From positions 1 to 16,267 of the IMG/VR virus record IMGVR_UViG_2778261227_000013: a stretch of DNA of 16,267 bases. One strand, 5' to 3'. Under the pieces are notes generated by a model, which saw only the letters and a list, made by a program, of their open reading frames with translations, searched no databases and was not told where the DNA came from. Every line of letters begins with the position of its first letter. The stretch's first letter is position 1. The stretch comes from a virus (lineage: Duplodnaviria; Heunggongvirae; Uroviricota; Caudoviricetes). Shown here piece after piece: positions 1-14,899 of this stretch. Position numbers and translations under genes: made by a program.

Positions 1-1731
1 TTAGCCTGAGATATATTCGTCCGCTGCGTTCTTGATTATTTTTGACCTAACATTTTTAATGTACGGTATTTTTTTCAGATCATCCCTCGAACAGTGAACG
101 ATATCACCCACTTTAGGATAGGTTTCTTTTATTCGGTCGCATATTGCGTTACTAATTGACAAGCAACTAACCGGATCATCAAGAAGTTGTCCTACAATTG
201 ACCTTGTTGGTACAGGTGTCCCACACTTAGGACAAAACTTCGCATCTCCAGGTAACTCAGCGGAACAAGTTTGACACTCATCAGCTGATTCTTTCAATTT
301 TTCTAAAAAACGCTCTAATTCAGAATCTGCTGCGCCAAATTCTTTATAATCAGCGAGAGATAATAGTGTTATTATCTCCCCGAACTTATTAGATACGAAT
401 GCTTTTTCAGTGAAAAGTAATGATAAATTAACCATGTAGCGCTGACCCGATTTTCGATTAGACATCTTCACGGACCCTTGCTTGGAAAGAACACCAGAAT
501 AACAAAGCAAATCTAGAGACAATCTAAGATTTGGAGAAATAACGGGAGGAAGAACAAAAAAAGCAGATTGGGTTTGAGTCTTTTTCTCTCTGTTATTTTT
601 CAATCTAAGCTCAGGGATAATACACTCCCTAAGAATATCAAGTCCAATGCGAACATGGTGAGAATACTTAGGTAATCGTTTTGAAAGCCCTAAATGATAA
701 GGTAATAATTCTTGATTGACATAATCCTGAGTGCAAGTTAAAAGATCTCTTTCAGTATAACCTTTCTCATATACTTTATTAAATAAATGGAGAAATGCTC
801 TAGGGTTTCCGGATGAAAGATGAATACATTGATCTAGCAAATCACCTTTAGCCAATATTCTCTTTTTTGCTGCTCCTTGTGTGACCCGTTTATCTAATAG
901 ATCACGATATAAACGTCGTGTTCGTTCCCGCCCAATATTTCCAGTTTCGTATCCTCCGAGGTTTATCATCATGGCATCTTGACCAACTTCAAAATTTTTA
1001 CCATACGATGTAATTGACGGATATACAGCCGCCTTAACTGCAATTTTACCGCCATGAAGCAATTTAAATATTTCGAAGAATATTTCTTGCTGTTCTGGTA
1101 TAAAGGTATGAGCAGCCTCATCAAATAAAAAAACAATTCTATTAAGTTGGTATTCTTGAATTATCTCCTTGATGATGTCATTTACATAACTTATATCATT
1201 AACCTTATCTAAAAAATCCTCTCCAATTTCATTCAACAATTTATCTGAAGAAGGATCTCTTGATAACCTTTGAAGCAGATGAATTTTAGATTGTAGAGCA
1301 TCTTTCATCCCAGTTATAGTTTTAATCCCAAAAATTCTTTGAAATGGATCACTGCTATTATTGTCACGAATGACATCTAAAAATATCAACTTTTCGTACA
1401 AAGCTTGTAGTAACTTAGCGCTTACCCATATCTGAAATGCATTTTTATTGTCAGCTTTAACCCCTTCCAGCAAAGTACTGGTTTTGAAATTAACATATAC
1501 CCCCACAATCTTTTTAACAGGAAAATCACTATCTAATTCAGCTTCTGCCGCTCTTAGAAGCATAGACTTTCCAATTCCTCTGGCACCCTGAATCAGATGA
1601 GAGCCCGCTATTTTTAGTTTTGCTACAACATCTTTTTCAAACTCACCAAGAACAGCCAGTTGTTTGACCTGTTTCAACTCAAGATCTTCGGTACGTGCTG
1701 CATGTAATAACTCAGTGTCTAACATAGACAT
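1..1731 (-). CDS. P-loop NTPase with C-terminal zinc ribbon and RpoA alpha-CTD-like helix-hairpin-helix domain; candidate defence/cargo protein
   Basis: Complete 576-aa ORF with ATG at 1729-1731 and TAA at 1-3. Walker A GARGIGKS near residue 50, Walker B-like IVFLFDEAAH, and an SSGNPRAF sensor-like motif. C-terminal CQTCS...CPKCG four-cysteine ribbon, then a segment resembling the RNA polymerase alpha C-terminal domain (LSISNAICDRIKE...VGDIV...DDLKKIPYIKNVRSKII). One-nucleotide TAATG overlap with the upstream gene; GAGGT upstream. Very AT-rich. Confidence 0.8.
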   Translation of the reverse strand: MSMLDTELLHAARTEDLELKQVKQLAVLGEFEKDVVAKLKIAGSHLIQGARGIGKSMLLRAAEAELDSDFPVKKIVGVYVNFKTSTLLEGVKADNKNAFQIWVSAKLLQALYEKLIFLDVIRDNNSSDPFQRIFGIKTITGMKDALQSKIHLLQRLSRDPSSDKLLNEIGEDFLDKVNDISYVNDIIKEIIQEYQLNRIVFLFDEAAHTFIPEQQEIFFEIFKLLHGGKIAVKAAVYPSITSYGKNFEVGQDAMMINLGGYETGNIGRERTRRLYRDLLDKRVTQGAAKKRILAKGDLLDQCIHLSSGNPRAFLHLFNKVYEKGYTERDLLTCTQDYVNQELLPYHLGLSKRLPKYSHHVRIGLDILRECIIPELRLKNNREKKTQTQSAFFVLPPVISPNLRLSLDLLCYSGVLSKQGSVKMSNRKSGQRYMVNLSLLFTEKAFVSNKFGEIITLLSLADYKEFGAADSELERFLEKLKESADECQTCSAELPGDAKFCPKCGTPVPTRSIVGQLLDDPVSCLSISNAICDRIKETYPKVGDIVHCSRDDLKKIPYIKNVRSKIIKNAADEYISG

Positions 1732-2420
1732 TATAAAACTACCTCACTAGATTTAGGAAATGAAGATAGCACTTCTTTTCTTATCTTATGACGAACAATA
1801 TTGGAATTAATTATCATACCCAAAACAACCTCAGCCAGACCTATGAACCTCTCCCAATCTTCACTTTCAAAAGTGAACTTATTAGGCAAATCAGTTTCAA
1901 ATGAGGTTATTTTTCCATGAACGATATCACTTAATTGTCCATAAATTTTCTGTGCTCTTCTCATATCAATAACACATACTTTCCCTCCTATCTTCTCATT
2001 TTCTGTGAAGTAGTCTATATAGCCTTGATTTGTTATATGCTTCAACATATCACTGAAACTTAAGTCTTCATCATGATTTTTCCAAGAATATACAACATGA
2101 GGCATATCCCAAAGATAAATAGATGCGACACCTAGTTCCAAAACTCTCCTTAGAACAATATTAGCTGGTTTATCTATGGCACAGGCAGAAAGATATAAAG
2201 AAGATGACGTATCAGCAATAATCTCACTAAAAATTTTAATACAAACATCATGATGAACTGATGTTTTCTTTTTATTCAAAATTTCAGCAATCGTGTTAAG
2301 AGTGAAAATTGAGATAATTACTTTATCTAATTTTTTATCTTGTATGCCCTGCCATTCACGAAAGTTACTATTGAACTTATCGCTTAGCATATTAATTATC
2401 TCAGTAGGTGATTTGTTCAT
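1731..2420 (-). CDS. Hypothetical protein (229 aa), first gene of the AT-rich cargo operon; no recognisable motif
   Basis: ORF with ATG at 2418-2420 and AAGGGA upstream. Its stop overlaps the start of the downstream NTPase gene by one nucleotide, suggesting translational coupling. Same AT-rich composition as its partner. Confidence 0.7.
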   Translation of the reverse strand: MNKSPTEIINMLSDKFNSNFREWQGIQDKKLDKVIISIFTLNTIAEILNKKKTSVHHDVCIKIFSEIIADTSSSLYLSACAIDKPANIVLRRVLELGVASIYLWDMPHVVYSWKNHDEDLSFSDMLKHITNQGYIDYFTENEKIGGKVCVIDMRRAQKIYGQLSDIVHGKITSFETDLPNKFTFESEDWERFIGLAEVVLGMIINSNIVRHKIRKEVLSSFPKSSEVVL

Positions 2421-3214: not shown

Positions 3215-3742
3215 TCATTGATGGTCTGATTTTTCCCATTCAGCCAGGGCGTTTAGCCCGGCTTCACTCCATGATTCCAGTTCATCGGGACAATCACCTG
3301 CAACATAGCAGAGTTCGCAACGCAGCATACGAATTGCCAGCCTGGCATTACCTCGCAAATTGTATTGTTCAAAGTAATGCTGCCCGTCGCAATCCTCAAG
3401 GCAGATAGCACCATCATCAAGAAAGTGCACTTCCCAGCCTAATTCCCCGGCTGCATCCTGCACACGCTGCTGTATGCCCTCGTCCGTTGCTGGCGCAGGA
3501 ATTTTACCGCCTCTGGCCTTAACTGCTTTCCAGAACTCGCCCCACGTCATTTCCAGCGTTCTCTCTGGCCACATTTCAGAAACTGTGTCTTTTCCCTGTG
3601 CTGGTGGGCTGTTCCGCTGCTCTGTCGCTTCCACATCGATTTTTTTACCGGACATGACCACTTCGCCTTTCTCGATCCAGTCGTAAACTGTCTGGCGGCT
3701 TACGCCTTTGTGTTTGGCATATTCTGCCTTACTCATCAGCAT
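3215..3742 (-). CDS. Nu1/small-terminase-like N-terminal HTH protein (175 aa); possible packaging-redirection (Rpp-like) protein
   Basis: N-terminal SKAEYAKHKGVSRQTVYDWIEKGEV resembles the winged-HTH of lambda Nu1-type small terminase subunits. AAGGGTGAG upstream of the ATG at 3742; 6-nt gap from the upstream gene. Confidence 0.6.
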   Translation of the reverse strand: MLMSKAEYAKHKGVSRQTVYDWIEKGEVVMSGKKIDVEATEQRNSPPAQGKDTVSEMWPERTLEMTWGEFWKAVKARGGKIPAPATDEGIQQRVQDAAGELGWEVHFLDDGAICLEDCDGQHYFEQYNLRGNARLAIRMLRCELCYVAGDCPDELESWSEAGLNALAEWEKSDHQ

Positions 3743-3748
3743 TATGAC

Positions 3749-4420
3749 TCACCCTTCTTTTTCCAGTTGAGCCAGCCGCCCGGATATTTCTTCCAGTTTT
3801 TCCAGGGCTGGCTTGCAGGCCGCATCAATAACGTCCCGGACCATTCCGGCAAGCTGTTCTTCTGCTGTCGGCGTTGTTACTTCCACGCCCGATGGTTTCC
3901 CGCCCTTATCCCAAACACCAAGCGGCACGAGCGCAACGTGATCGATAAGAAATGGCGTACCCTCAATAAAAAAATTGTCCTCGCCCATTACATCAGGAAC
4001 TTCTGCCCCACCTGAGGCACCACAAAACACAACCGACGGACTGGTGGATACCTCCCCTCGGGCTTTCTGGATGTAATCGATGATTTCCTGTCCGTAAATC
4101 CGGCATACGCCCCACACCTCGTCACCGCGAATATACGGCAACATGACGGTGCCAATAATGCGCGACCGTTCGCCCACGTCTTCAAGGGTTTTGCTTTCGG
4201 GATGGTCGATAATGACGGGTACTCCGGCGCAACGTTCCAGGAACTGCGGATTGAGATAAGTTTGCGGTGAACGCCAGACAAATTCTTTTTCTTCGGCGCG
4301 GTAGGCCATTCCGGTTCCTGTGATACGCAGGTTAACCAGCCACATGTTGGAAAACTGATAAGGCGACGGTAGCTGTCCGTCCCGAATCTGCTTCGCCGCC
4401 TCAATTTCTGTTAAAAGCAT
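3749..4420 (-). CDS. Hypothetical protein (223 aa)
   Basis: Long ORF in operon arrangement with the downstream HTH gene. No clear Shine-Dalgarno before the ATG at 4420, so the start is uncertain. An imperfect hairpin lies in the upstream intergenic region. Confidence 0.6.
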   Translation of the reverse strand: MLLTEIEAAKQIRDGQLPSPYQFSNMWLVNLRITGTGMAYRAEEKEFVWRSPQTYLNPQFLERCAGVPVIIDHPESKTLEDVGERSRIIGTVMLPYIRGDEVWGVCRIYGQEIIDYIQKARGEVSTSPSVVFCGASGGAEVPDVMGEDNFFIEGTPFLIDHVALVPLGVWDKGGKPSGVEVTTPTAEEQLAGMVRDVIDAACKPALEKLEEISGRLAQLEKEG

Positions 4421-4484
4421 AATGTTATCCGGTTATAAGCAATAAGCCCCGCCAAATCCGGCAGGGCTGAACTCAGCACGTTTT

Positions 4485-5063
4485 TCATGCCCCCGCGAGG
4501 CTTGCAGTGTTAATTTTGACCAGGCGACGGGGAGGGATTTTGAAAGCACTAAGCCAGTTATTCGGATCCCCCTGATATTCAGTAATCCGCCGTCCGGCTT
4601 CATCCATTCTTACGGTTTTACGCAAATAGCCCGGCGTATTTTCCACAGCCCACTGAACACTGTCTTTTGCAGCCTGGTAAATCTGATCTTCCAGCACCGC
4701 CAGCGTTGCAGAATCTGAAACGGAACGAATATCCACATCACTGAATTTTTTAGCCAGCTTCTGTGCACCAATTAATGCACGCTTGCGGTAATCCATCGAC
4801 TTTTCGCCAGCAAACGGGGCCGGAGCGCGACGCCCCATATTGCTGTATGCGGAATCCGCTTTGGCCTGGGCTTCTGCCAGTGAGGATTCATCTTCGACTG
4901 ACGCGACGATGTTTTGATTAGCGTTATCCTCTTTTATGAAATCCTGTGCGGGGATCGCATTCAGAATTTCGATAATCTCCTGCGGAGTGCTTCCCTGCGA
5001 CTCTGACAGAGCGTTAACCACCTCCATCAGTTTTAATCGCAAATCTTCTTTGCTTGCTGGCAT
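4485..5063 (-). CDS. Hypothetical protein (about 192 aa)
   Basis: The track ORF begins at a GTG at 5072. An ATG at 5063 preceded by GAGAGGTGG is the more likely start (MPASKEDLRLK...). Confidence 0.6.
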   Translation of the reverse strand: MPASKEDLRLKLMEVVNALSESQGSTPQEIIEILNAIPAQDFIKEDNANQNIVASVEDESSLAEAQAKADSAYSNMGRRAPAPFAGEKSMDYRKRALIGAQKLAKKFSDVDIRSVSDSATLAVLEDQIYQAAKDSVQWAVENTPGYLRKTVRMDEAGRRITEYQGDPNNWLSAFKIPPRRLVKINTASLAGA

Positions 5064-5102
5064 TTTTACCACCTCTCTTTTTTCACCAAAAAATCACGAC
5101 CA

Positions 5103-5276
5103 TCAGGCCGGACGTTCTACGGGATAAAGCGCCCGCTGCATTAAACGCCGGGCGACCTCATGAATGCTCGGAGCAATCCCCAGCGGAGAATTGCGGCGTT
5201 CCTCGTCCTGGATGCGCTGTAATGCTTCAATCTGATCACGAGCGAGTAAAACGGGTTTCACGCTGGCTTTTCTCAT
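5103..5276 (-). CDS. Small hypothetical protein (about 57 aa)
   Basis: AGGAG lies 8 nt upstream of the ATG at 5276 (MRKASVKPVLLARDQIEALQ...). The track's longer start at 5300 lacks a suitable ribosome-binding site. Confidence 0.5.
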   Translation of the reverse strand: MRKASVKPVLLARDQIEALQRIQDEERRNSPLGIAPSIHEVARRLMQRALYPVERPA

Positions 5277-5410
5277 AGTCATATCTCCTGAACAAAACAA
5301 TGGTTATGATTGCATAAACTGAAATGACGATCTACATCATTGCAATTTATGAAACGATAACGCATGATGATCGCGTTCTTCCCATTGACTTCAATCACCT
5401 GAAAAACAAA

Positions 5411-5472
5411 GCCCGCAACACTTCTGGCTGCGGGCTTTTTACTGGCACAAAAAAGCCGGGAAAAATCCCGGC
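5411..5472 (-). terminator. Tandem intrinsic-terminator-like hairpins downstream of the PerC-like gene
   Basis: GCCCGCA...TGCGGGC hairpin at 5411-5435 flanked by T/A runs on both sides. GCCGGG-aaaaat-CCCGGC hairpin at 5455-5472, followed on the minus strand by TTTTTT. Confidence 0.6.
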
Positions 5473-5477
5473 CTCCG

Positions 5478-5765
5478 TCACTGACTGCAATTTTTCGATC
5501 CAGGGTATTTCCTGAATGCCTTACCATTGGGCTGATGTAATCCCATCCCGGCATGTGCCCGGCTGATGGTTTCGCGCATCTCCCCGAAATTATCCTGCCT
5601 TGCTGGTGGGCGTGCTGCCTTGCGGATACATTCCGCGCGACGTTTTGCCGCCTGTTCCCGTGCCTTGTCATCATTCGCCAGCATGATGACCTCAGCCCAC
5701 CGCGCCGCCGCTCTCCGGTACAGACCACGCGCTTCCAGTGCTTCCGCTTTGCTGTCGTGAATCAT
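5478..5765 (-). CDS. PerC-like small transcriptional regulator (95 aa), tentative
   Basis: Translation MIHDSKAEALEARGLYRRAAARWAEVI... matches my recollection of the PerC-family N-terminal signature. ATGA overlap with the stop of the upstream ProQ/FinO gene. Confidence 0.55.
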   Translation of the reverse strand: MIHDSKAEALEARGLYRRAAARWAEVIMLANDDKAREQAAKRRAECIRKAARPPARQDNFGEMRETISRAHAGMGLHQPNGKAFRKYPGSKNCSQ

Positions 5766-6346
5766 GCGCCTGTTTTCTCCTTTGCTACCCGGCGCTGACG
5801 TTTGCGCTTCTCATTCAGCGCCACCAGCCGCGTTTCTGCGTCCTGTTGTTCCTGTGGTGTCACCTCGCCGCACGGCTGGCCTTTCAGGTCGTAGCGTACC
5901 CCACCAGCCATTAAGGCGCGGTAATAGCGCGGACACTGCGCATAAGATGCCAGCGTCGCACGTAATGCCCCTGGCCCGAATGCCAGCCCCCTGACGGCGA
6001 GATCCTGCATCAGGTCGTCGAATACCCCCACCTTTAGCGGCTTCGGTGCTTCCCGGCTGAATAATTCTGGCCACAACTCAGTGAGGCGGTTAACGCGTCT
6101 GCGGTTTTTTCGCTGCCGTTTGGTCATATGCCGCCACGGTGTCGCCCCTGTGGGCTTCTGCTGCGCTTTCTGGTTACCGGGCATCACTTTATGCGCCGAT
6201 GTGGTTTTATCCTGCTGCTGCTGCTGCGCCGCCTTCGTCGTTTTCTGCGGCGTGCCGTAAATGCCTTTCGGTTTTCTGTTAATGGTCAGCTTAGTCATGC
6301 TTTGCCCCATCGTTTTTACTGATTGTTTCATATCCGGTACTTTCAT
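5762..6346 (-). CDS. ProQ/FinO-domain RNA-binding protein (194 aa; start uncertain)
   Basis: Segment LTELWPELF...PLKVGVFDDL...LRATLASYAQCPRYYRALMAGGVRYDLKGQPCGEVT parallels the ProQ N-terminal FinO domain (PLKIGIFQDL...RVDLDGNPCGEL) as recalled. Basic, Q-rich N-terminus. No good ribbon-binding site before the first ATG. Confidence 0.75.
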   Translation of the reverse strand: MKVPDMKQSVKTMGQSMTKLTINRKPKGIYGTPQKTTKAAQQQQQDKTTSAHKVMPGNQKAQQKPTGATPWRHMTKRQRKNRRRVNRLTELWPELFSREAPKPLKVGVFDDLMQDLAVRGLAFGPGALRATLASYAQCPRYYRALMAGGVRYDLKGQPCGEVTPQEQQDAETRLVALNEKRKRQRRVAKEKTGA

Positions 6347-6351
6347 CTTCT

Positions 6352-6637
6352 GGGTAGAGGGGTAGACGGAGGGTAGATAACAAAAAATAGTCCTCTACCC
6401 ACTTAACTTAATGAAAAAAAACAACTTTCACACATTAGGTAGAGGGGTAGACCGTAAAATAGAAAAGTTTGAAACTTACTTTCTTACAATCTGTGTTTTC
6501 CTCTCGCTGTATAAAAAGTTTTTTGAGCGGGGATGTTGTCTACCCCTCTACCCACTTCTCTGAAAGCCTTGTGCTACGAGGGATTCAGCGGGTAGACAAT
6601 AAAAAATCACCATCTACCCTGTGTCTACCCATCTACC
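6352..6637. repeat. Iteron array GGGTAGA(G/C/T) in direct and inverted copies with A-rich spacers; putative replication origin
   Basis: Direct copies at 6352, 6360, 6371, 6438, 6445 and 6590. Inverted copies at 6393, 6538, 6546, 6612, 6623 and 6631. A-rich spacers between clusters. Located immediately downstream of the primase/helicase gene. Confidence 0.75.
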
Positions 6638-6654
6638 TGTTACGGGTATTACTC

Positions 6655-8403
6655 TTATAAAAATTCCTCGGTTCTCTCCGTTTGTATAACGTTGGTTTGT
6701 ATTCGTCCTTTAAAACCTCTTGTCAGGTATTCAGCCCCATATTCTCTTGCTGCTGACTTCATGGCCTTACCAAAATCACCGACACTTAATATTTCTTCTT
6801 CCCCCATATACTCCATAAAGGCGAGATATAGTCTGTACAGGCTTGTACGCGGATTAAGATCAGTTAATCTCTTACCGCCTCCCATCATCATCCCATGCGG
6901 TTCATCAAGAAATGCAAGCGCCGCACATAACCCAATGACAGGATCAGTTTCCTGTTTTATTTTCAGAGCTTCGGCACCGTCGCGCTGCTCCAACAATAAT
7001 TCCCGTGCTTTTTCTGGATCGGAAAAGTTAGCCAGTAATCGACGAATAATGACAGGTATTTCCGCCGCTATCTTTTGCGGTAACTCTTTATCCTTTTCGG
7101 TCTCCCTTACAATATTATCGAACCGAAAAATTACACGTCGACGCGCAACGCCTCCGGCCCGTTCGGTGAATGTCATCGGCACGTTATTTGTTGCCAGCAC
7201 GACGGACCTGATAATTGTTGTGAAACGCTTTTCATATTTCGGGTTAATTTCAACTGGATCTCCACCCGTTATTTTTTTGATGCCGGATCCTTCACCTGTA
7301 TATTTCGGCTGGTCTGCCAGGACAATAAGACGACTTCCGACAACCTGCGCACGCCCGCCAGCATCATCAAGCGATGTCATTTCAGCGCTTACCGTGTTCT
7401 GTTTCCCTGCCAGAAGGGTGGCTATGTGCGTGATTGTGCTCTTGCCGCTCCCGCCTTCCCCTGTGGCCTCAATAAACATCTGCCAGTCGTACCGGTTCGC
7501 CATAATCATGTACAGCGCGGCGCATATACGCATCATCTTTCGCGGGTCTTTTCCTGCGGCGTGATCAAGCCATTTATGAAAGTTTGGCGCGTTGTCGCGG
7601 ATGTTCTCCCCTGGTACTGGTGGCGTGTACTCAATGCCGTTATGCGTGGTGATCCAGTTATCCGGCGAGTGCGGGGAAAATTCGCCAGTTTTCATGTCAA
7701 GCACGCCATTAGAGAACGGCAATAAATCACCTGACGGTTCCCCCATTGGCCTGGCCATAACTTTTAAAGCATCCACTGCATTACTTATTGCTCTCCGACT
7801 AAACGATGTTCCGTTTTCTTCGTAAATAGCCACCATTTCACGACTAAGATCCAGTGTGCTTACCGGAACCCAAAAATCATCGCGCCAGACGTGGACAACC
7901 TCACTCTCCTGATTCATTGCTACATCCTGAAATCGTTCAGCTAAAAGTTTTGCCCTTTGGCTGTCCGCCATTCTGGAAAGAGATATTTTGTGTTTTTTCT
8001 CGGTCCTTCCTGACAGAATTTCTCCGCGCTCAGCCTGTTCGCGGATCCGTTGCAGGTAGTCGCGCCAGTTCTCCGGTTCCTGGTCGGTGATGCCTTTGTA
8101 TAATTTCGCCTCCTGTACGCCAGCCAGCGCCAGCTTTTCAGCGATAGCATTGATCTGGATTGGCTCGATCTCCCCCGCGAGATAGACACGCGCAAAGCGG
8201 CGTTTCTCGTCAATAATGCGGATATTCGCCAGGTCTGCCAGTTGCTTTGGTCCCAGATAAACAGGTGGCACGTTATCGCAGTGTTTTCGTCCTTCGCTTT
8301 CAATCCAGTGTTGGGCATGGGCGTAAGCATCCGTCCCGGCAAAAATGATTACCTCAGTGAATTTATCCTTCGGCTGATATTTCAAACTCGGTGCGTTTTT
8401 CAC
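6655..8403 (-). CDS. P4-type primase/helicase-like replication protein with D5-like NTPase (582 aa)
   Basis: Walker A GEGGSGKST and Walker B-like LIVLAD within a long ORF, followed directly by the iteron array. Family assignment is from recalled resemblance to phage/plasmid P4-family primase C-terminal regions. Start overlaps the upstream gene by 4 nt. Confidence 0.8.
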   Translation of the reverse strand: MKNAPSLKYQPKDKFTEVIIFAGTDAYAHAQHWIESEGRKHCDNVPPVYLGPKQLADLANIRIIDEKRRFARVYLAGEIEPIQINAIAEKLALAGVQEAKLYKGITDQEPENWRDYLQRIREQAERGEILSGRTEKKHKISLSRMADSQRAKLLAERFQDVAMNQESEVVHVWRDDFWVPVSTLDLSREMVAIYEENGTSFSRRAISNAVDALKVMARPMGEPSGDLLPFSNGVLDMKTGEFSPHSPDNWITTHNGIEYTPPVPGENIRDNAPNFHKWLDHAAGKDPRKMMRICAALYMIMANRYDWQMFIEATGEGGSGKSTITHIATLLAGKQNTVSAEMTSLDDAGGRAQVVGSRLIVLADQPKYTGEGSGIKKITGGDPVEINPKYEKRFTTIIRSVVLATNNVPMTFTERAGGVARRRVIFRFDNIVRETEKDKELPQKIAAEIPVIIRRLLANFSDPEKARELLLEQRDGAEALKIKQETDPVIGLCAALAFLDEPHGMMMGGGKRLTDLNPRTSLYRLYLAFMEYMGEEEILSVGDFGKAMKSAAREYGAEYLTRGFKGRIQTNVIQTERTEEFL

Positions 8404-8690
8404 TTCTTACCTCCCGCAACCAACATTGCCCGGATTTTTTTTATATTCGTGGCTGCACGTCTTGCCACTGCCTGTTGTTTGTTTTCCACCAGAATAAAAT
8501 CACGCTCAAACTGACGGCGCGGCATTACGCAGTCATATTCGTAAGCCTCACGGCGGTAGGTGATATTGCCTGGCGTAACGTGACGAATAACCACTCGTCC
8601 CCCACTTCTGGTGTCGCGGTAAATATCTCCGTGTCTGATTTCAGGCCGAGAGAGACCGCTGGCAGTAAAGCCAGAATTTTTCTTTTTCAT
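8400..8690 (-). CDS. Hypothetical protein (96 aa)
   Basis: AGGAAAA upstream of the ATG at 8690; ATGA-type 4-nt overlap with the primase gene. Confidence 0.6.
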   Translation of the reverse strand: MKKKNSGFTASGLSRPEIRHGDIYRDTRSGGRVVIRHVTPGNITYRREAYEYDCVMPRRQFERDFILVENKQQAVARRAATNIKKIRAMLVAGGKK

Positions 8691-9696: not shown

Positions 9697-10054
9697 GCTC
9701 CACCTCCTGGCGAATACGGGCAGCGAATACCATCACGCAGCCATCAGGGGATTGCTGGCGTGCTTCCTGTTCGCTGGTGGCCTCGATGTGAATTACGCGC
9801 GGTTGTGCTGTGCTCAGGGCGATAAAACGCCAGATAAAATTGTTCTCGCATTTCTGAATAAACAGCGTGTTTTCTTCGCGCCCTTTCCATGTTGCCGAGA
9901 TATAGCCCATGTCATTGAGCATCTCGCAGGCATCAACCAGCGTATCAGCAGCTACGTGTACAGTGTTTTTACCGTCAGCTATGCAATCACGGTGCACCGC
10001 CAGGAAGGTGTATATAAATTTAGGGTGAGTTTGGGTATGCTGTGTTCCAGCCAT
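9689..10054 (-). CDS. Hypothetical protein (121 aa), first gene of the leftward operon
   Basis: ATG at 10054 preceded by GAGGT. It is the C-terminal part of the 510-aa track ORF, whose upstream portion is judged non-coding or shadow. Confidence 0.6.
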   Translation of the reverse strand: MAGTQHTQTHPKFIYTFLAVHRDCIADGKNTVHVAADTLVDACEMLNDMGYISATWKGREENTLFIQKCENNFIWRFIALSTAQPRVIHIEATSEQEARQQSPDGCVMVFAARIRQEVEHV

Positions 10055-10143
10055 AATCGTTACCTCATTTAACGGTTTGGTTAGACGCCCCGCTACTGCC
10101 GCAAACAGTTCGGGGCGTTGTCGTTTACATCCTCTTACTGAGG

Positions 10144-10219
10144 TGTGATTTAAATTAAATTTAACTGAATCACAGGTCAAGTATTTTTTGTGATTCTTTT
10201 TTGTGTATACTGAATCACA
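10144..10219. promoter_or_regulatory. Divergent promoter/operator region with two 31-bp palindromes TGTGATT-N17-AATCACA
   Basis: Palindrome 1 at 10144-10174 and palindrome 2 at 10189-10219. Palindrome 2 encloses a TATACT -10-like hexamer (10206-10211) for the rightward gene. A leftward TTGACC -35-like hexamer (complement of 10175-10180) lies beside palindrome 1. Confidence 0.6.
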
Positions 10220-10241
10220 TCTTTTGTTTAGGAGAATGCAC

Positions 10242-10547
10242 ATGGCAAAAAACACTATCAACGACAAATCAAAACAGATTTCAATTCGTATCCCACATGA
10301 TGCTTTTGAAGGCATGGAATCCGTAAAACTGGACGGTGAAAGCAACGCCGGATTCATAGTAACCGCCATGCGCGGTGAGATCGCCCGCCGCCAGGCAGAA
10401 GGAAGCGGAGAAAATCCCCTGGTTTCTTCGCTCGATGCGCTGGCGCAGGTGGAAAAAATCGGAGTCAAAGCTGCCGAGGAGATCGGGCAGCTCGTCACCG
10501 TCGCACGTGAAGAACTCCAGCGCCGCAAGGCCAAAGAATCAGAATAA
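10242..10547 (+). CDS. Ribbon-helix-helix-like (Arc/MetJ/CopG-type) DNA-binding regulator (101 aa), tentative
   Basis: AGGAG 8 nt upstream of the ATG at 10242. N-terminal KQISIRIPHDAFEGMESV...NAGFIVTAMRGEIARRQ has the strand-helix-helix pattern; the C-terminus is charged and coiled-coil-like. Confidence 0.6.
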   Translation: MAKNTINDKSKQISIRIPHDAFEGMESVKLDGESNAGFIVTAMRGEIARRQAEGSGENPLVSSLDALAQVEKIGVKAAEEIGQLVTVAREELQRRKAKESE

Positions 10548-12091: not shown

Positions 12092-12289
12092 TCAGGTAGC
12101 TGTTCCGCGTGATTCCGCAATACGCTGATTAATCCACTCGTCAATTTCACTCTCAACGAAAGCAATAGCTCGCGAGCCAATTTTAACTGATGCAGGAAAT
12201 TTACCTTGCCCCATAAGGCGATAAATCCATGCCTTGCTATATCCAGTTCTACGCTGAACTTCTGTTAAACGAATAAGCGTATTTGACAT
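12092..12289 (-). CDS. alpA: AlpA-family phage transcriptional regulator (65 aa)
   Basis: MSNTLIRLTEVQRRTGYSKAWIYRLMGQGKFPASVKIGSRAIAFVESEIDEWI matches the AlpA/MerR-like HTH family signature (YRL...GKFP..K.G.RA.A..ESE...WI). GAGGT upstream of the ATG at 12289. Confidence 0.85.
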   Translation of the reverse strand: MSNTLIRLTEVQRRTGYSKAWIYRLMGQGKFPASVKIGSRAIAFVESEIDEWINQRIAESRGTAT

Positions 12290-13442: not shown

Positions 13443-14657
13443 TCATCCACATTTTCCGAACTTGCCATGCACCACGTTACCGCCATGTTCGAGCGAATCC
13501 ATATAGTCGGCGTACCACTGGAGCATCTCGCGCCGCCCGTCCAGATATTGCGCATGATTGTACGTGCCACGAATTGAGTTCTTATCAACGTGTGCAAGCT
13601 GCGTTTCTATCCACGCGGTGTTATAGCCCTGCTCATGTAAAATCGTGCTCATGGTGTGCCGGAATCCATGACCAGTAACCTTTCCGTTATAGCCGATGCG
13701 TTTAAATACTTGGTTTATGCTAGCCTCGCTCATTGTTTTCCTTGGATCATTACGGCCGGGAAACATAAGCGGATAATTACCAGTTAATTCTTTAATCTGC
13801 CCAATAAGAGAAAGAGCCTGCTTAGACAAAGGCACCACATGAGGGCGACGCATTTTCATCCGTGAAGCAGGTATCTCCCAGATAGCCTTGTTGAGATCGA
13901 TTTCATCCCATAATGCACCGCGCAGTTCGCCAGTTCGCAAACCAGTGATAATCAGTAGACGAGCCGCCATAACAACCAATGCACTTCCTGAGTAACTGGA
14001 CAATGCCTTGAAAAAATCAGGCAATTCTTTGGCTGTGAGGAAAGGATAATGATTAGATTCATGGCCTTGCATCGCGCTAGTAAGATCTGGGGCAGGGTTA
14101 TACTCTGCGCGACCAGTGACTATTGCATAGCGGAAAACTTCCCCGCACCGCTGCCTCACTTTTTTGGCTTTTTCTGTAGCACCGCGCCCCTCGATGCGTC
14201 GCAGCACATTCAGAAGTTCAAGTGGTTTGATTTCGGCAATTGGTTTTTTGCCAATGTAAGGGAACACATCTTTGTTGAAGGCTTCGAGGATATCTGAAGC
14301 ATAACCAGCAGACCATTTTTTTAATTTGCTGCTGTGCCACTCAAGGGCAATATCTTTGAAGGTATTGTTTAACTGCGTTTCCCGGGCAATCTTTTCCTCT
14401 CGTTTCGCTTCCATCGGATCGATACCCCCAGCGATACCCCTTTTAGCTTCTTCACGTTTTGCACGAGCATCAGCCAAGGTAACTTCAGGATACACACCTA
14501 GTGCTAACAGCTTCTCTTTACCAGCTACACGATATTTAAAGCGCCAGTATTTTCCTCCACTAGGTTTTACCAGGAGATACAGACCACCACCATCAGCCAG
14601 CTTGTAAGCCTTCTCTTTTGGCTTGGCAGTGTCTATTTGACGGGCATTGAGTTTCAC
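13443..14657 (-). CDS. int: Tyrosine recombinase / phage integrase (P4-type, with N-terminal arm-binding domain), 404 aa
   Basis: N-terminus AKPKEKAYKLADGGGLYLLVKPSGGKYWRFKY is typical of P4-like integrases. C-terminal catalytic region contains HGFRHT and a terminal Y (GTYNHAQY). GTG start at 14657 with GGAGGT upstream. Directly adjacent to the tRNA 3' end. Confidence 0.93.
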   Translation of the reverse strand: MKLNARQIDTAKPKEKAYKLADGGGLYLLVKPSGGKYWRFKYRVAGKEKLLALGVYPEVTLADARAKREEAKRGIAGGIDPMEAKREEKIARETQLNNTFKDIALEWHSSKLKKWSAGYASDILEAFNKDVFPYIGKKPIAEIKPLELLNVLRRIEGRGATEKAKKVRQRCGEVFRYAIVTGRAEYNPAPDLTSAMQGHESNHYPFLTAKELPDFFKALSSYSGSALVVMAARLLIITGLRTGELRGALWDEIDLNKAIWEIPASRMKMRRPHVVPLSKQALSLIGQIKELTGNYPLMFPGRNDPRKTMSEASINQVFKRIGYNGKVTGHGFRHTMSTILHEQGYNTAWIETQLAHVDKNSIRGTYNHAQYLDGRREMLQWYADYMDSLEHGGNVVHGKFGKCG

Positions 14658-14823: not shown

Positions 14824-14899
14824 TGGTGCCGATAATAGGAGTCGAACCTACGACCTTCGCATTACGAATGCGCTGCTCTACCAACTGAGCTATATCGGC
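14824..14899 (-). tRNA. thrW: tRNA-Thr (anticodon CGU)
   Basis: The reverse complement reads GCCGATATAGCTCAGTTGGTAGAGCAGCGCATTCGTAATGCGAAGGTCGTAGGTTCGACTCCTATTATCGGCACCA: a 76-nt cloverleaf-compatible sequence with a CGT anticodon and encoded CCA end. Confidence 0.96.

Follow-up and report, generated by a model that had tools for sequence, protein, structure and literature searches.

A predicted FinO-type RNA-binding protein and an overlapping PerC-family gene form a conserved, modular unit beside the replication origin of a PICI in Escherichia

By its gene content and insertion site, the window (the whole stretch of 16,267 nucleotides of DNA that was analysed) is a phage-inducible chromosomal island (PICI) at thrW/proA of an Escherichia genome. 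Our criteria for a PICI were an integrase at a specific att site, alpA, a primase with an iteron origin, packaging-redirection genes, the lack of tail and lysis genes, and a length of about 10–18 kb, and annotation of the sequence found all of these gene-content features in the window. The integrase gene (13443–14657) lies beside proA and the tRNA-Thr gene thrW (14824–14899), which is the insertion site of the island. The island also contains an AlpA-type HTH gene (12092–12289), an AntA/AntB-type gene, a DUF4222 gene (8400–8690), a D5-type (D5_N/DUF5906) primase gene (6655–8403), a replication origin with GGGTAGA iterons (6346–6655) and a packaging operon (3215–5276), in which a 57-aa gene is accompanied by protease/scaffold-like and small-terminase-like genes (3215–5072). 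AT-rich cargo of 29–39% GC occupies positions 1–2420, and no capsid, tail or lysis genes were found in the window. An Rfam search of the window detected tRNA-Thr and the int-alpA motif only, and no antisense-RNA family. The window also encodes a homologue of RgdR, a T3S regulator from the same type of island (PMC6092414).

Directly after the replication origin lie two genes on the minus strand, separated by tandem terminators from the packaging operon downstream. No other 500 nt of the window are as rich in GC as this segment (60.6%), which we count as a sign of mosaic origin.

The upstream gene of the pair encodes a FinO-domain protein. Its longest open reading frame extends to 6346, and in an alignment of 16 homologues the conserved start was Met17 of this frame (N-terminus MTKLTINRKPKG), so that the gene most likely spans 5762–6298 and encodes 178 aa; PGAP calls the same start, and thus the same 178 aa, in an island that is 99.4% identical. 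The Pfam model PF04352 (ProQ/FINO) matched the frame at 5762–6346 with E = 7.3e-23 and 81.1 bits, against a cutoff of 27, across residues 82–186 and model positions 5–108 of 109. From its N-terminus onwards, the protein has a basic motif (MTKLTINRKPKGIY), a disordered linker rich in Gln, the basic stretch TKRQRKNRRR and then the FinO core, and it ends in a basic helix. Among solved structures, the best match by sequence was the N-terminal domain of ProQ (5NB9, E = 1e-11), followed by FinO (2e-10), with NMB1681 and RocC matched as well. AlphaFold predicted the N-terminal 75 residues (194-aa numbering) to be disordered and the core to fold with pLDDT >90, and the top Foldseek matches of this core were FinO (1DVO, the best), RocC (7RGT/7RGU) and NMB1681 (3MW6), with a probability of 1.0 and target-normalised TM-scores of 0.6–0.84.

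Residues associated with RNA recognition were also examined. Tyr125, Arg135 and Gly91 (178-aa numbering) were invariant across the island-type proteins, FinO and FopA; the Tyr and Arg correspond to Y87/R97 of RocC and Y70/R80 of ProQ, which with the turn Gly make up the pocket for the RNA 3' nucleotide, and FinO domains bind terminator hairpins plus the 3' tail (PMC9674577). The helix-cap Arg equivalent to RocC R75 is present, but an invariant Gly takes the place of the cap Ser, and neither of the two flanking Lys is found. One subclade of these proteins has Cys at the helix-cap Arg position, which we counted against the accessory-operon reading given below. With fold and pocket both intact in the alignment and the structural model, the protein is a predicted RNA-binding member of the FinO family.

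Within that family, sequence comparison places it in a satellite-restricted clade apart from ProQ, FinO and FopA. Assignment to ProQ proper was rejected, as the protein scored 55.2 bits with NCBIfam NF003434 (cutoff 127) and ends after the FinO core and one helix. Plasmid FinO was rejected on a score of 64.3 bits with NF010317 (cutoff 136), on identity of 30–35% confined to the core, and on a genomic context that is a PICI origin; FopA was rejected on 31% identity to FopA of pCol1B9, again confined to the core, and an unrelated N-terminal region. The N-terminal motif, LT(I/L)xRK..G..TP, aligns with the extreme N-terminus of plasmid FinO, and the overall layout is therefore FinO-like.

The downstream gene (5478–5765, minus strand) encodes a small regulator of the PerC/Pch family, of 95 aa, with a YRRAAxRW motif that was invariant in 27 PerC homologues. 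It matched PF06069 (PerC) with E = 2.2e-32 and 111.6 bits, against a cutoff of 22.6, over model positions 1–89 of 90. The protein is 53% identical to the PerC homologue of EcCICFT073, 51% to PchE of strain Sakai, 46% to EcCIMP1_025 and 44% to EPEC PerC. NCBI likewise gives the name PchE to a 54-aa frameshifted copy, which shows 91% identity along its whole length and also has a FinO gene in front of it. Resemblance to the ANR (AraC negative regulator) family was faint, since NF033650 gave 14.4 bits (E = 0.024) where the cutoff is 32; the authors of the EcCIMP1 study noted a similarly faint ANR resemblance for EcCIMP1_025. Sequence searches found no solved PerC structure, and a fold search with the window protein returned generic TPR-like helical matches only. 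In comparison with the E. albertii island, dN/dS was 0.22 and 0.33 for the FinO/PerC pair, and both genes are under purifying selection.

At the junction of the two genes the plus strand reads tcat (5762–5765), so the stop codon of the FinO-type gene and the start codon of the PerC-type gene overlap as ATGA on the minus strand. A Shine-Dalgarno sequence for the PerC-type gene (AAGGAG, 5777–5782, minus strand) is located inside the 3' end of the FinO-type gene, 11 nt upstream of the ATG. Terminator 1 (about 5449–5476, minus strand) begins 2 nt past the PerC stop codon and is a hairpin, GGCCGGGA-UUUU-UCCCGGCU, with a U-run, and terminator 2 (about 5402–5443, minus strand), detected by a terminator scan and by folding, is a hairpin of 12 bp between an A-run and a U-run, a bidirectional shape. 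The 91-nt terminator stretch folded at -41.4 kcal/mol (z = -4.8), and none of 200 shuffled sequences folded as well. The hairpin at the position of terminator 1 is kept in related islands, with compensatory changes in the stem (G:C, U:A, C:G), and is kept also where a different gene follows FinO; equivalent tandem terminators occur in EcCICFT073 and in loci L009–L011, whose PerC-like gene is named PchE at NCBI. The preliminary description of this locus had proposed a FinO-domain gene coupled by ATGA to a PerC-like gene, ahead of tandem terminators and on a satellite, and both domain assignments, the overlap, the two hairpins with their U-runs and the carriage on a phage satellite (PICI gene content at thrW) were borne out by these analyses.

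Upstream of the pair, the leader and presumed promoter region (6299–6400, minus strand) extends from the last iterons to the FinO start, the promoter being placed there by analogy. A scan for the sigma-70 consensus upstream of the FinO-type gene gave 0 sites at threshold. Searches for antisense promoters or terminators in or beside the module gave sub-threshold matches only, and the weak terminator-like sites that the terminator scan reported on the plus strand were within chance expectation.

We then evaluated how widely the pair is distributed. The 1.4-kb segment that contains it was present in 321 of 5,426 complete E. coli genomes (about 6%), on chromosomes every time, and its carriers include commensal, ETEC, STEC and environmental strains alike. 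The phage collection held no near match to this segment, and protein searches of phages found distant relatives of the two proteins only; the single close match in the plasmid collection was a 4.8-Mb record that is evidently a chromosome. RefSeq names the genes in near-identical islands "ProQ/FINO family protein" and "PerC family transcriptional regulator", and the pair is thus not a discovery at the level of annotation.

Conservation of the pairing was assessed in 87 FinO-bearing loci, taken from E. ruysiae, E. albertii, a Pantoea species, L009–L011 and 79 IMG/VR contigs. Because a scan of one genome per species gave 3 loci only, this comparison rests mostly on the IMG/VR contigs, a redundant set in which E. 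coli predominates. The start of PerC overlapped the FinO stop by 4 nt in 57 of the 87 loci and by 11 nt in 2; PerC followed FinO after a short gap in 2 more, was separated from it by a 138-aa ORF in 4, and lay upstream of it in 3. In the other 19 loci FinO was overlapped as GTGA by phrog_1957, an unrelated gene of 82 aa, and the islands concerned encode capsid, protease and portal proteins. Most of the 87 loci had a strong hairpin terminator behind the overlapping gene, and the FinO unit ranged from E. coli to Pantoea, in the latter at 43%/41% identity. Viewed from the PerC side, FinO preceded the PerC gene in 42 of 42 loci when that gene was at least 70% identical to the one in the window; more distant PerC genes had an SSB gene or something else upstream.

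Exactly at the gene junction, near-identical FinO genes are joined either to PerC alleles that are only 60–66% identical or to the 82-aa gene, and the N-terminal motif of FinO is the same with every partner gene. Both observations weaken the idea of specific co-evolution or physical pairing between FinO and PerC. The variety of partners instead indicates that the conserved unit consists of FinO, an overlapping small gene and a terminator, and that it is modular rather than co-evolved.

The place that this unit holds in the island can be compared with that of PerC-family genes in related islands. EcCICFT073 has, from the primase onwards, a small gene, SSB, PerC, terminators and capsid-type genes, and in Sakai Sp7 the primase is followed by ECs1586, SSB, pchE and capsid genes; in both, the PerC-family gene is therefore the last of a short post-origin operon. 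Judged by gene order, the FinO-type gene of the window stands where the small gene and SSB stand in these two islands. In Sp7, transcription starts 10 nt upstream of ECs1586 (5' RACE and RNA-seq), and ECs1586, SSB and pchE form a single transcript that is low without induction and is reduced by an SOS-inducing antibiotic (PMC7369912). By analogy, transcription of the FinO-PerC unit may start from a promoter bordering the origin, with expression from the resident island. Beyond the terminators, a conserved repeat/palindrome (GTTTCATAAATTGCAAT...TGCAAT) is present at about 5305–5356. Its role as a target operator of PerC was considered and found no support, since it tracks the first small gene of the packaging operon, even in EcCIMP1, where perC is about 8 kb away, and is absent from several PerC-bearing islands. 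Three other searches were made around the pair: C4/isrK RNAs occur in some related islands and do not co-occur with FinO, a PADLOC search for defence systems gave no match for either protein, and PerB of EPEC, encoded upstream of perC on pMAR2, was rejected as a diverged FinO domain, having its own Pfam family and no similarity.

The two functional labels given in the preliminary description fared less well than its structural claims. It had suggested an RNA chaperone; a ProQ-like global chaperone is not supported, as the protein falls below the NCBIfam cutoffs for ProQ and FinO, lacks the ProQ C-terminal domain and groups in the separate satellite clade. It had also suggested a virulence-gene activator. 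Group 1 Pch proteins and EPEC PerC do activate LEE1 (PMC4764244, PMC11773190), and EPEC PerC and EHEC PchA/B/C do so by relief of H-NS silencing (PMC4764244), but the window protein is only 44% identical to EPEC PerC and is nearer to PchE and EcCIMP1_025, for which repression has been described. Overexpression of PchE represses csgD, curli, biofilm and HEp-2 adhesion, and pchD and pchE have little effect on LEE (PMC6265319); LEE1-lux is silenced by EcCIMP1_025, whereas LEE1 fusions are reported in the same study to be unaffected by the PerC-like genes of EcCIEDL933 and EcCICFT073 (PMC11773190). The data on PchE and EcCIMP1_025 come from overexpression of proteins that are 46–51% identical to the window PerC. 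As the closest characterised relatives either repress host genes or reportedly leave LEE1 unaffected, activation of LEE is not expected by homology, and "virulence activator" is probably not the right description of this protein.

The likeliest reading of the locus is an accessory operon whose two products act in trans, one on RNA and one on transcription, and we put at about even the chance that it is a self-contained operon of this kind, in which the FinO-type protein acts on terminator-type RNAs and the PerC-type protein acts on transcription through protein contacts. Under this model the unit would probably be expressed from an origin-adjacent promoter while the island is resident, and the overlap of the PerC start with the FinO stop would cause both proteins to be made together. 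The FinO-type protein would bind terminator-type hairpins with 3' U-tails, plausibly including the end of its own mRNA, and would stabilise or pair a limited number of RNAs, much as FinO and FopA serve the elements that encode them. Binding to its own mRNA is only plausible, because terminators after an operon are ordinary and EcCICFT073, which has no FinO, carries similar ones. The PerC-type protein would not be a classical DNA-binding activator; it would alter transcription by contacting other proteins, one example being relief of H-NS silencing in the manner of Pch. Its effects, whether on the host or on other mobile elements, may lie nearer to those of PchE and EcCIMP1_025 (repression of curli, flagella or LEE-type genes) than to activation of LEE. 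The position of the pair argues against an accessory role, as core satellite functions are more usual than cargo in a slot that separates replication from packaging genes, and the obvious cargo lies at the far end of the island.

That position is also the starting point of a different explanation, which we regard as possible though doubtful, namely that the two proteins regulate the life cycle of the satellite itself and are expressed after helper induction as the tail of an alpA-primase transcript. The PerC-type protein would then activate the packaging operon or the AT-rich cargo, or free one of them from silencing, and the FinO-type protein would control RNA of the island or the helper, for example in timing, copy number or terminator read-through. 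PerC indeed holds the slot just ahead of the packaging or capsid operon in each of EcCICFT073, Sakai Sp7 and the window, FinO occupies that slot in capsid-forming islands too, and the GC content of the cargo is typical of DNA silenced by H-NS; moreover, FinO and FopA control key functions of their own elements via antisense RNAs (PMC9977716, PMC7491321). However, the conserved operator upstream of the packaging operon tracks the first gene of that operon and not PerC, it is missing from several islands that have PerC, and the presence of PerC is itself variable among EcCIMP1-like islands (PMC11773190). Expression of pchE drops on SOS induction (PMC7369912), the post-origin genes of EcCICFT073, c1503 excepted, gave no interference with lambda (PMC6739421), and the Rfam and C4/isrK results in the window and related islands supply no antisense partner for FinO.

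Two further explanations look outward from the island, and we consider each of them unlikely. If a ProQ-like global RNA chaperone and a PerC-type activator of virulence genes (LEE) jointly reprogrammed the host, this would agree with the correct assignment of both families, with activation of LEE1 by Group 1 Pch proteins and EPEC PerC, and with the presence in the window of a homologue of RgdR, another T3S regulator. It conflicts with the failure of the closest characterised PerC homologues to activate LEE (PMC6265319, PMC11773190), with equivalog scores below the ProQ and FinO cutoffs and a protein without the ProQ C-terminal domain, with the few targets of the element-borne FinO proteins studied so far (PMC9977716), and with the occurrence of the segment in pathogenic and commensal strains alike. 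The pair might otherwise be a weapon against competing mobile elements, of benefit to the island or the host, in which the FinO-type protein would capture FinP- or Inc-type antisense RNAs and so shut down plasmid conjugation or replication, or would bind terminator RNAs of a helper phage. The LT(I/L)xRK motif and the layout resemble those of plasmid FinO, FinO proteins cross-talk with foreign antisense RNAs (PMC8136791, PMC9977716), and PICIs often carry functions against other mobile elements, according to work cited in PMC13612085; yet identity to FinO and FopA is 30–35% and restricted to the core domain, neither protein matched PADLOC, and the proposal is pure conjecture.

PerC homologues on such islands have been described since 2018 (PMC6092414, PMC11773190), and ProQ/FinO-like genes on satellites were noted in 2026 (PMC13612085, PMC13230959). 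A full-text literature search combining PerC, FinO/ProQ and PICI returned no description of a coupled FinO-PerC unit, and in the literature searched we found no experiment on the satellite FinO clade. What is new here is modest: as judged from the sequences compared, there is a satellite-restricted clade of FinO proteins whose genes nearly always have a small gene, most often PerC, overlapping their 3' end and a strong terminator after that. FinO and FopA, both borne on mobile elements, have each proved to govern a key function of the element that carries it by way of one antisense RNA (PMC9977716, PMC7491321), and a clade that roughly 6% of complete E. coli genomes carry would offer a tractable place for the study of RNA-level control in interactions between satellite, helper and host; interest in it would rise if an RNA partner were found for the FinO-type protein. 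In pathogenic E. coli, island-borne members of the PerC family affect adhesion, curli, flagella and the expression of LEE, and by extension carriage of the unit could change colonisation traits. A bolder proposal, which we think improbable, is that the satellite clade constitutes a fourth dedicated FinO-type protein of Escherichia that forms an obligate pair with the overlapped small protein, whether PerC-like or the 82-aa protein. In such a pair the small helical partner may dock on the N-terminal motif and steer FinO to terminator RNAs of the helper phage or host, and satellites would thereby gain an RNA-level handle on helper late genes or host surface structures.

Among known systems, ECs1586-ECs1587(SSB)-pchE of Sakai Sp7 (O-island 51, a capsid-forming island of the EcCIEDL933 type) is the counterpart in the same slot, with a PerC-family protein 51% identical to that of the window; it differs in that an 83-aa protein and SSB, rather than a FinO-domain protein, are encoded upstream, in that there is no ATGA overlap with a FinO gene, and in that the island has its own capsid genes. 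EcCIMP1_025, of the PICI EcCIMP1 in E. coli MP1, shares the thrW/proA site and the island type and is 46% identical, but stands alone, without FinO or SSB upstream, and is located after packaging-type genes. EPEC PerC (BfpW, pMAR2) and EHEC PchA/B/C belong to the same Pfam family and share YRRAAxRW, whereas EPEC perC comes third in the perABC cluster of a virulence plasmid, and lambdoid prophages carry the Pch genes. On the RNA-binding side, FinO of F-like plasmids has the same core fold, the basic N-terminal LT(L/I)xRK motif, a C-terminal helix and carriage on a mobile element in common with the window protein, but its gene lies at the end of a tra operon, with FinP as its partner, and that of the window lies at an island origin. 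FopA (YafB) of the IncI plasmid pCol1B9 likewise comes from a mobile element and combines a FinO domain with a basic N-terminal region, and it too lacks the C-terminal domain of ProQ (PMC7491321); its ligand is the replication antisense RNA Inc, of which no equivalent was found in the window. Chromosomal ProQ shares the FinO domain and has in addition a linker and a Tudor-like C-terminal domain that are absent from the window protein, and while ProQ is encoded by a core gene, the FinO-type gene of the window is island-borne and carried by about 6% of E. coli genomes.

The GC content of the FinO-PerC segment reached 60.6% at positions 5501-6000, the maximum per 500 nt in the window, compared with approximately 45-50% across most other DNA of the island, suggesting that the FinO-PerC module has a separate origin. 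The disordered linker near the N-terminus of the FinO protein includes a poly-Gln stretch whose codons form a CAG-type repeat (approximately 6211-6228, minus strand); this stretch varied from 3 to 9 Gln depending on the island.

We also examined the partner genes in related loci. In the capsid-forming islands found on IMG/VR contigs (L049-L061, L067-L068 and others), PerC was replaced by an unrelated 82-aa gene of family phrog_1957 (for example L052, 6543-6791) having a GTGA overlap with the FinO gene. On its 3' side in the capsid-forming islands were a terminator and GTTGTTC-type repeats, followed by the capsid genes. In the islands L009-L011, the 54-aa PerC-like gene annotated by NCBI as PchE (10001-10266) was found to derive by frameshift from a full-length PerC gene, and a second PerC-family gene (98 aa) was located near the far end of these same islands. 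Adjoining SSB and PerC-family genes were present on the conjugative Klebsiella plasmid pKv8917 (L007, 2369-3279), and this adjacency recurred in the E. coli islands EcCICFT073 and Sakai Sp7 (loci L012 and L092). Its recurrence on a plasmid as well as on islands hints that PerC-family genes may be part of a mobile-element 'establishment' gene set.

The first gene in the packaging operon encodes 57 aa. On the minus strand, 5' of this gene, we identified a conserved element, either a repeat or a palindrome, with the sequence GTTTCATAAATTGCAAT...TTATGCAATCAT (approximately 5305-5356), which was also present 5' of the homologues of this gene in EcCIMP1, EcCICFT073, an E. ruysiae island and a Pantoea island, and is probably the operator of the operon. 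The replication origin of the island (6346-6655), between the primase and FinO genes, consisted of an AT-rich core flanked by multiple copies of a GGGTAGA(C/T) iteron, which occurred in either orientation. Directly 3' of the integrase gene, Rfam placed the int-alpA RNA motif (RF02996; 13331-13398, minus strand) with 45.5 bits (gathering score, 35.8). This motif was also present in the islands of E. ruysiae and Pantoea.

The far end of the island (1-2420, minus strand) carried AT-rich cargo (29-39% GC), in which the gene for a 576-aa ORC/Cdc6-like AAA ATPase, bearing a zinc ribbon at its C-terminus, overlapped that for a 229-aa protein. The latter had no family match, and a PADLOC search returned no above-threshold match for either protein. 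The two genes occupy the usual accessory hotspot of PICIs, and we consider their products candidates for an unnamed defence pair.

Directly 5' of the primase gene, the DUF4222 gene (8400-8690, minus strand) encodes a protein 49% identical to ECs1581 (RgdR), a regulator from O-island 51 for which stimulation of LEE/type III secretion has been reported (PMC6092414); judging from this similarity, its product may therefore be a second candidate host regulator on the island.
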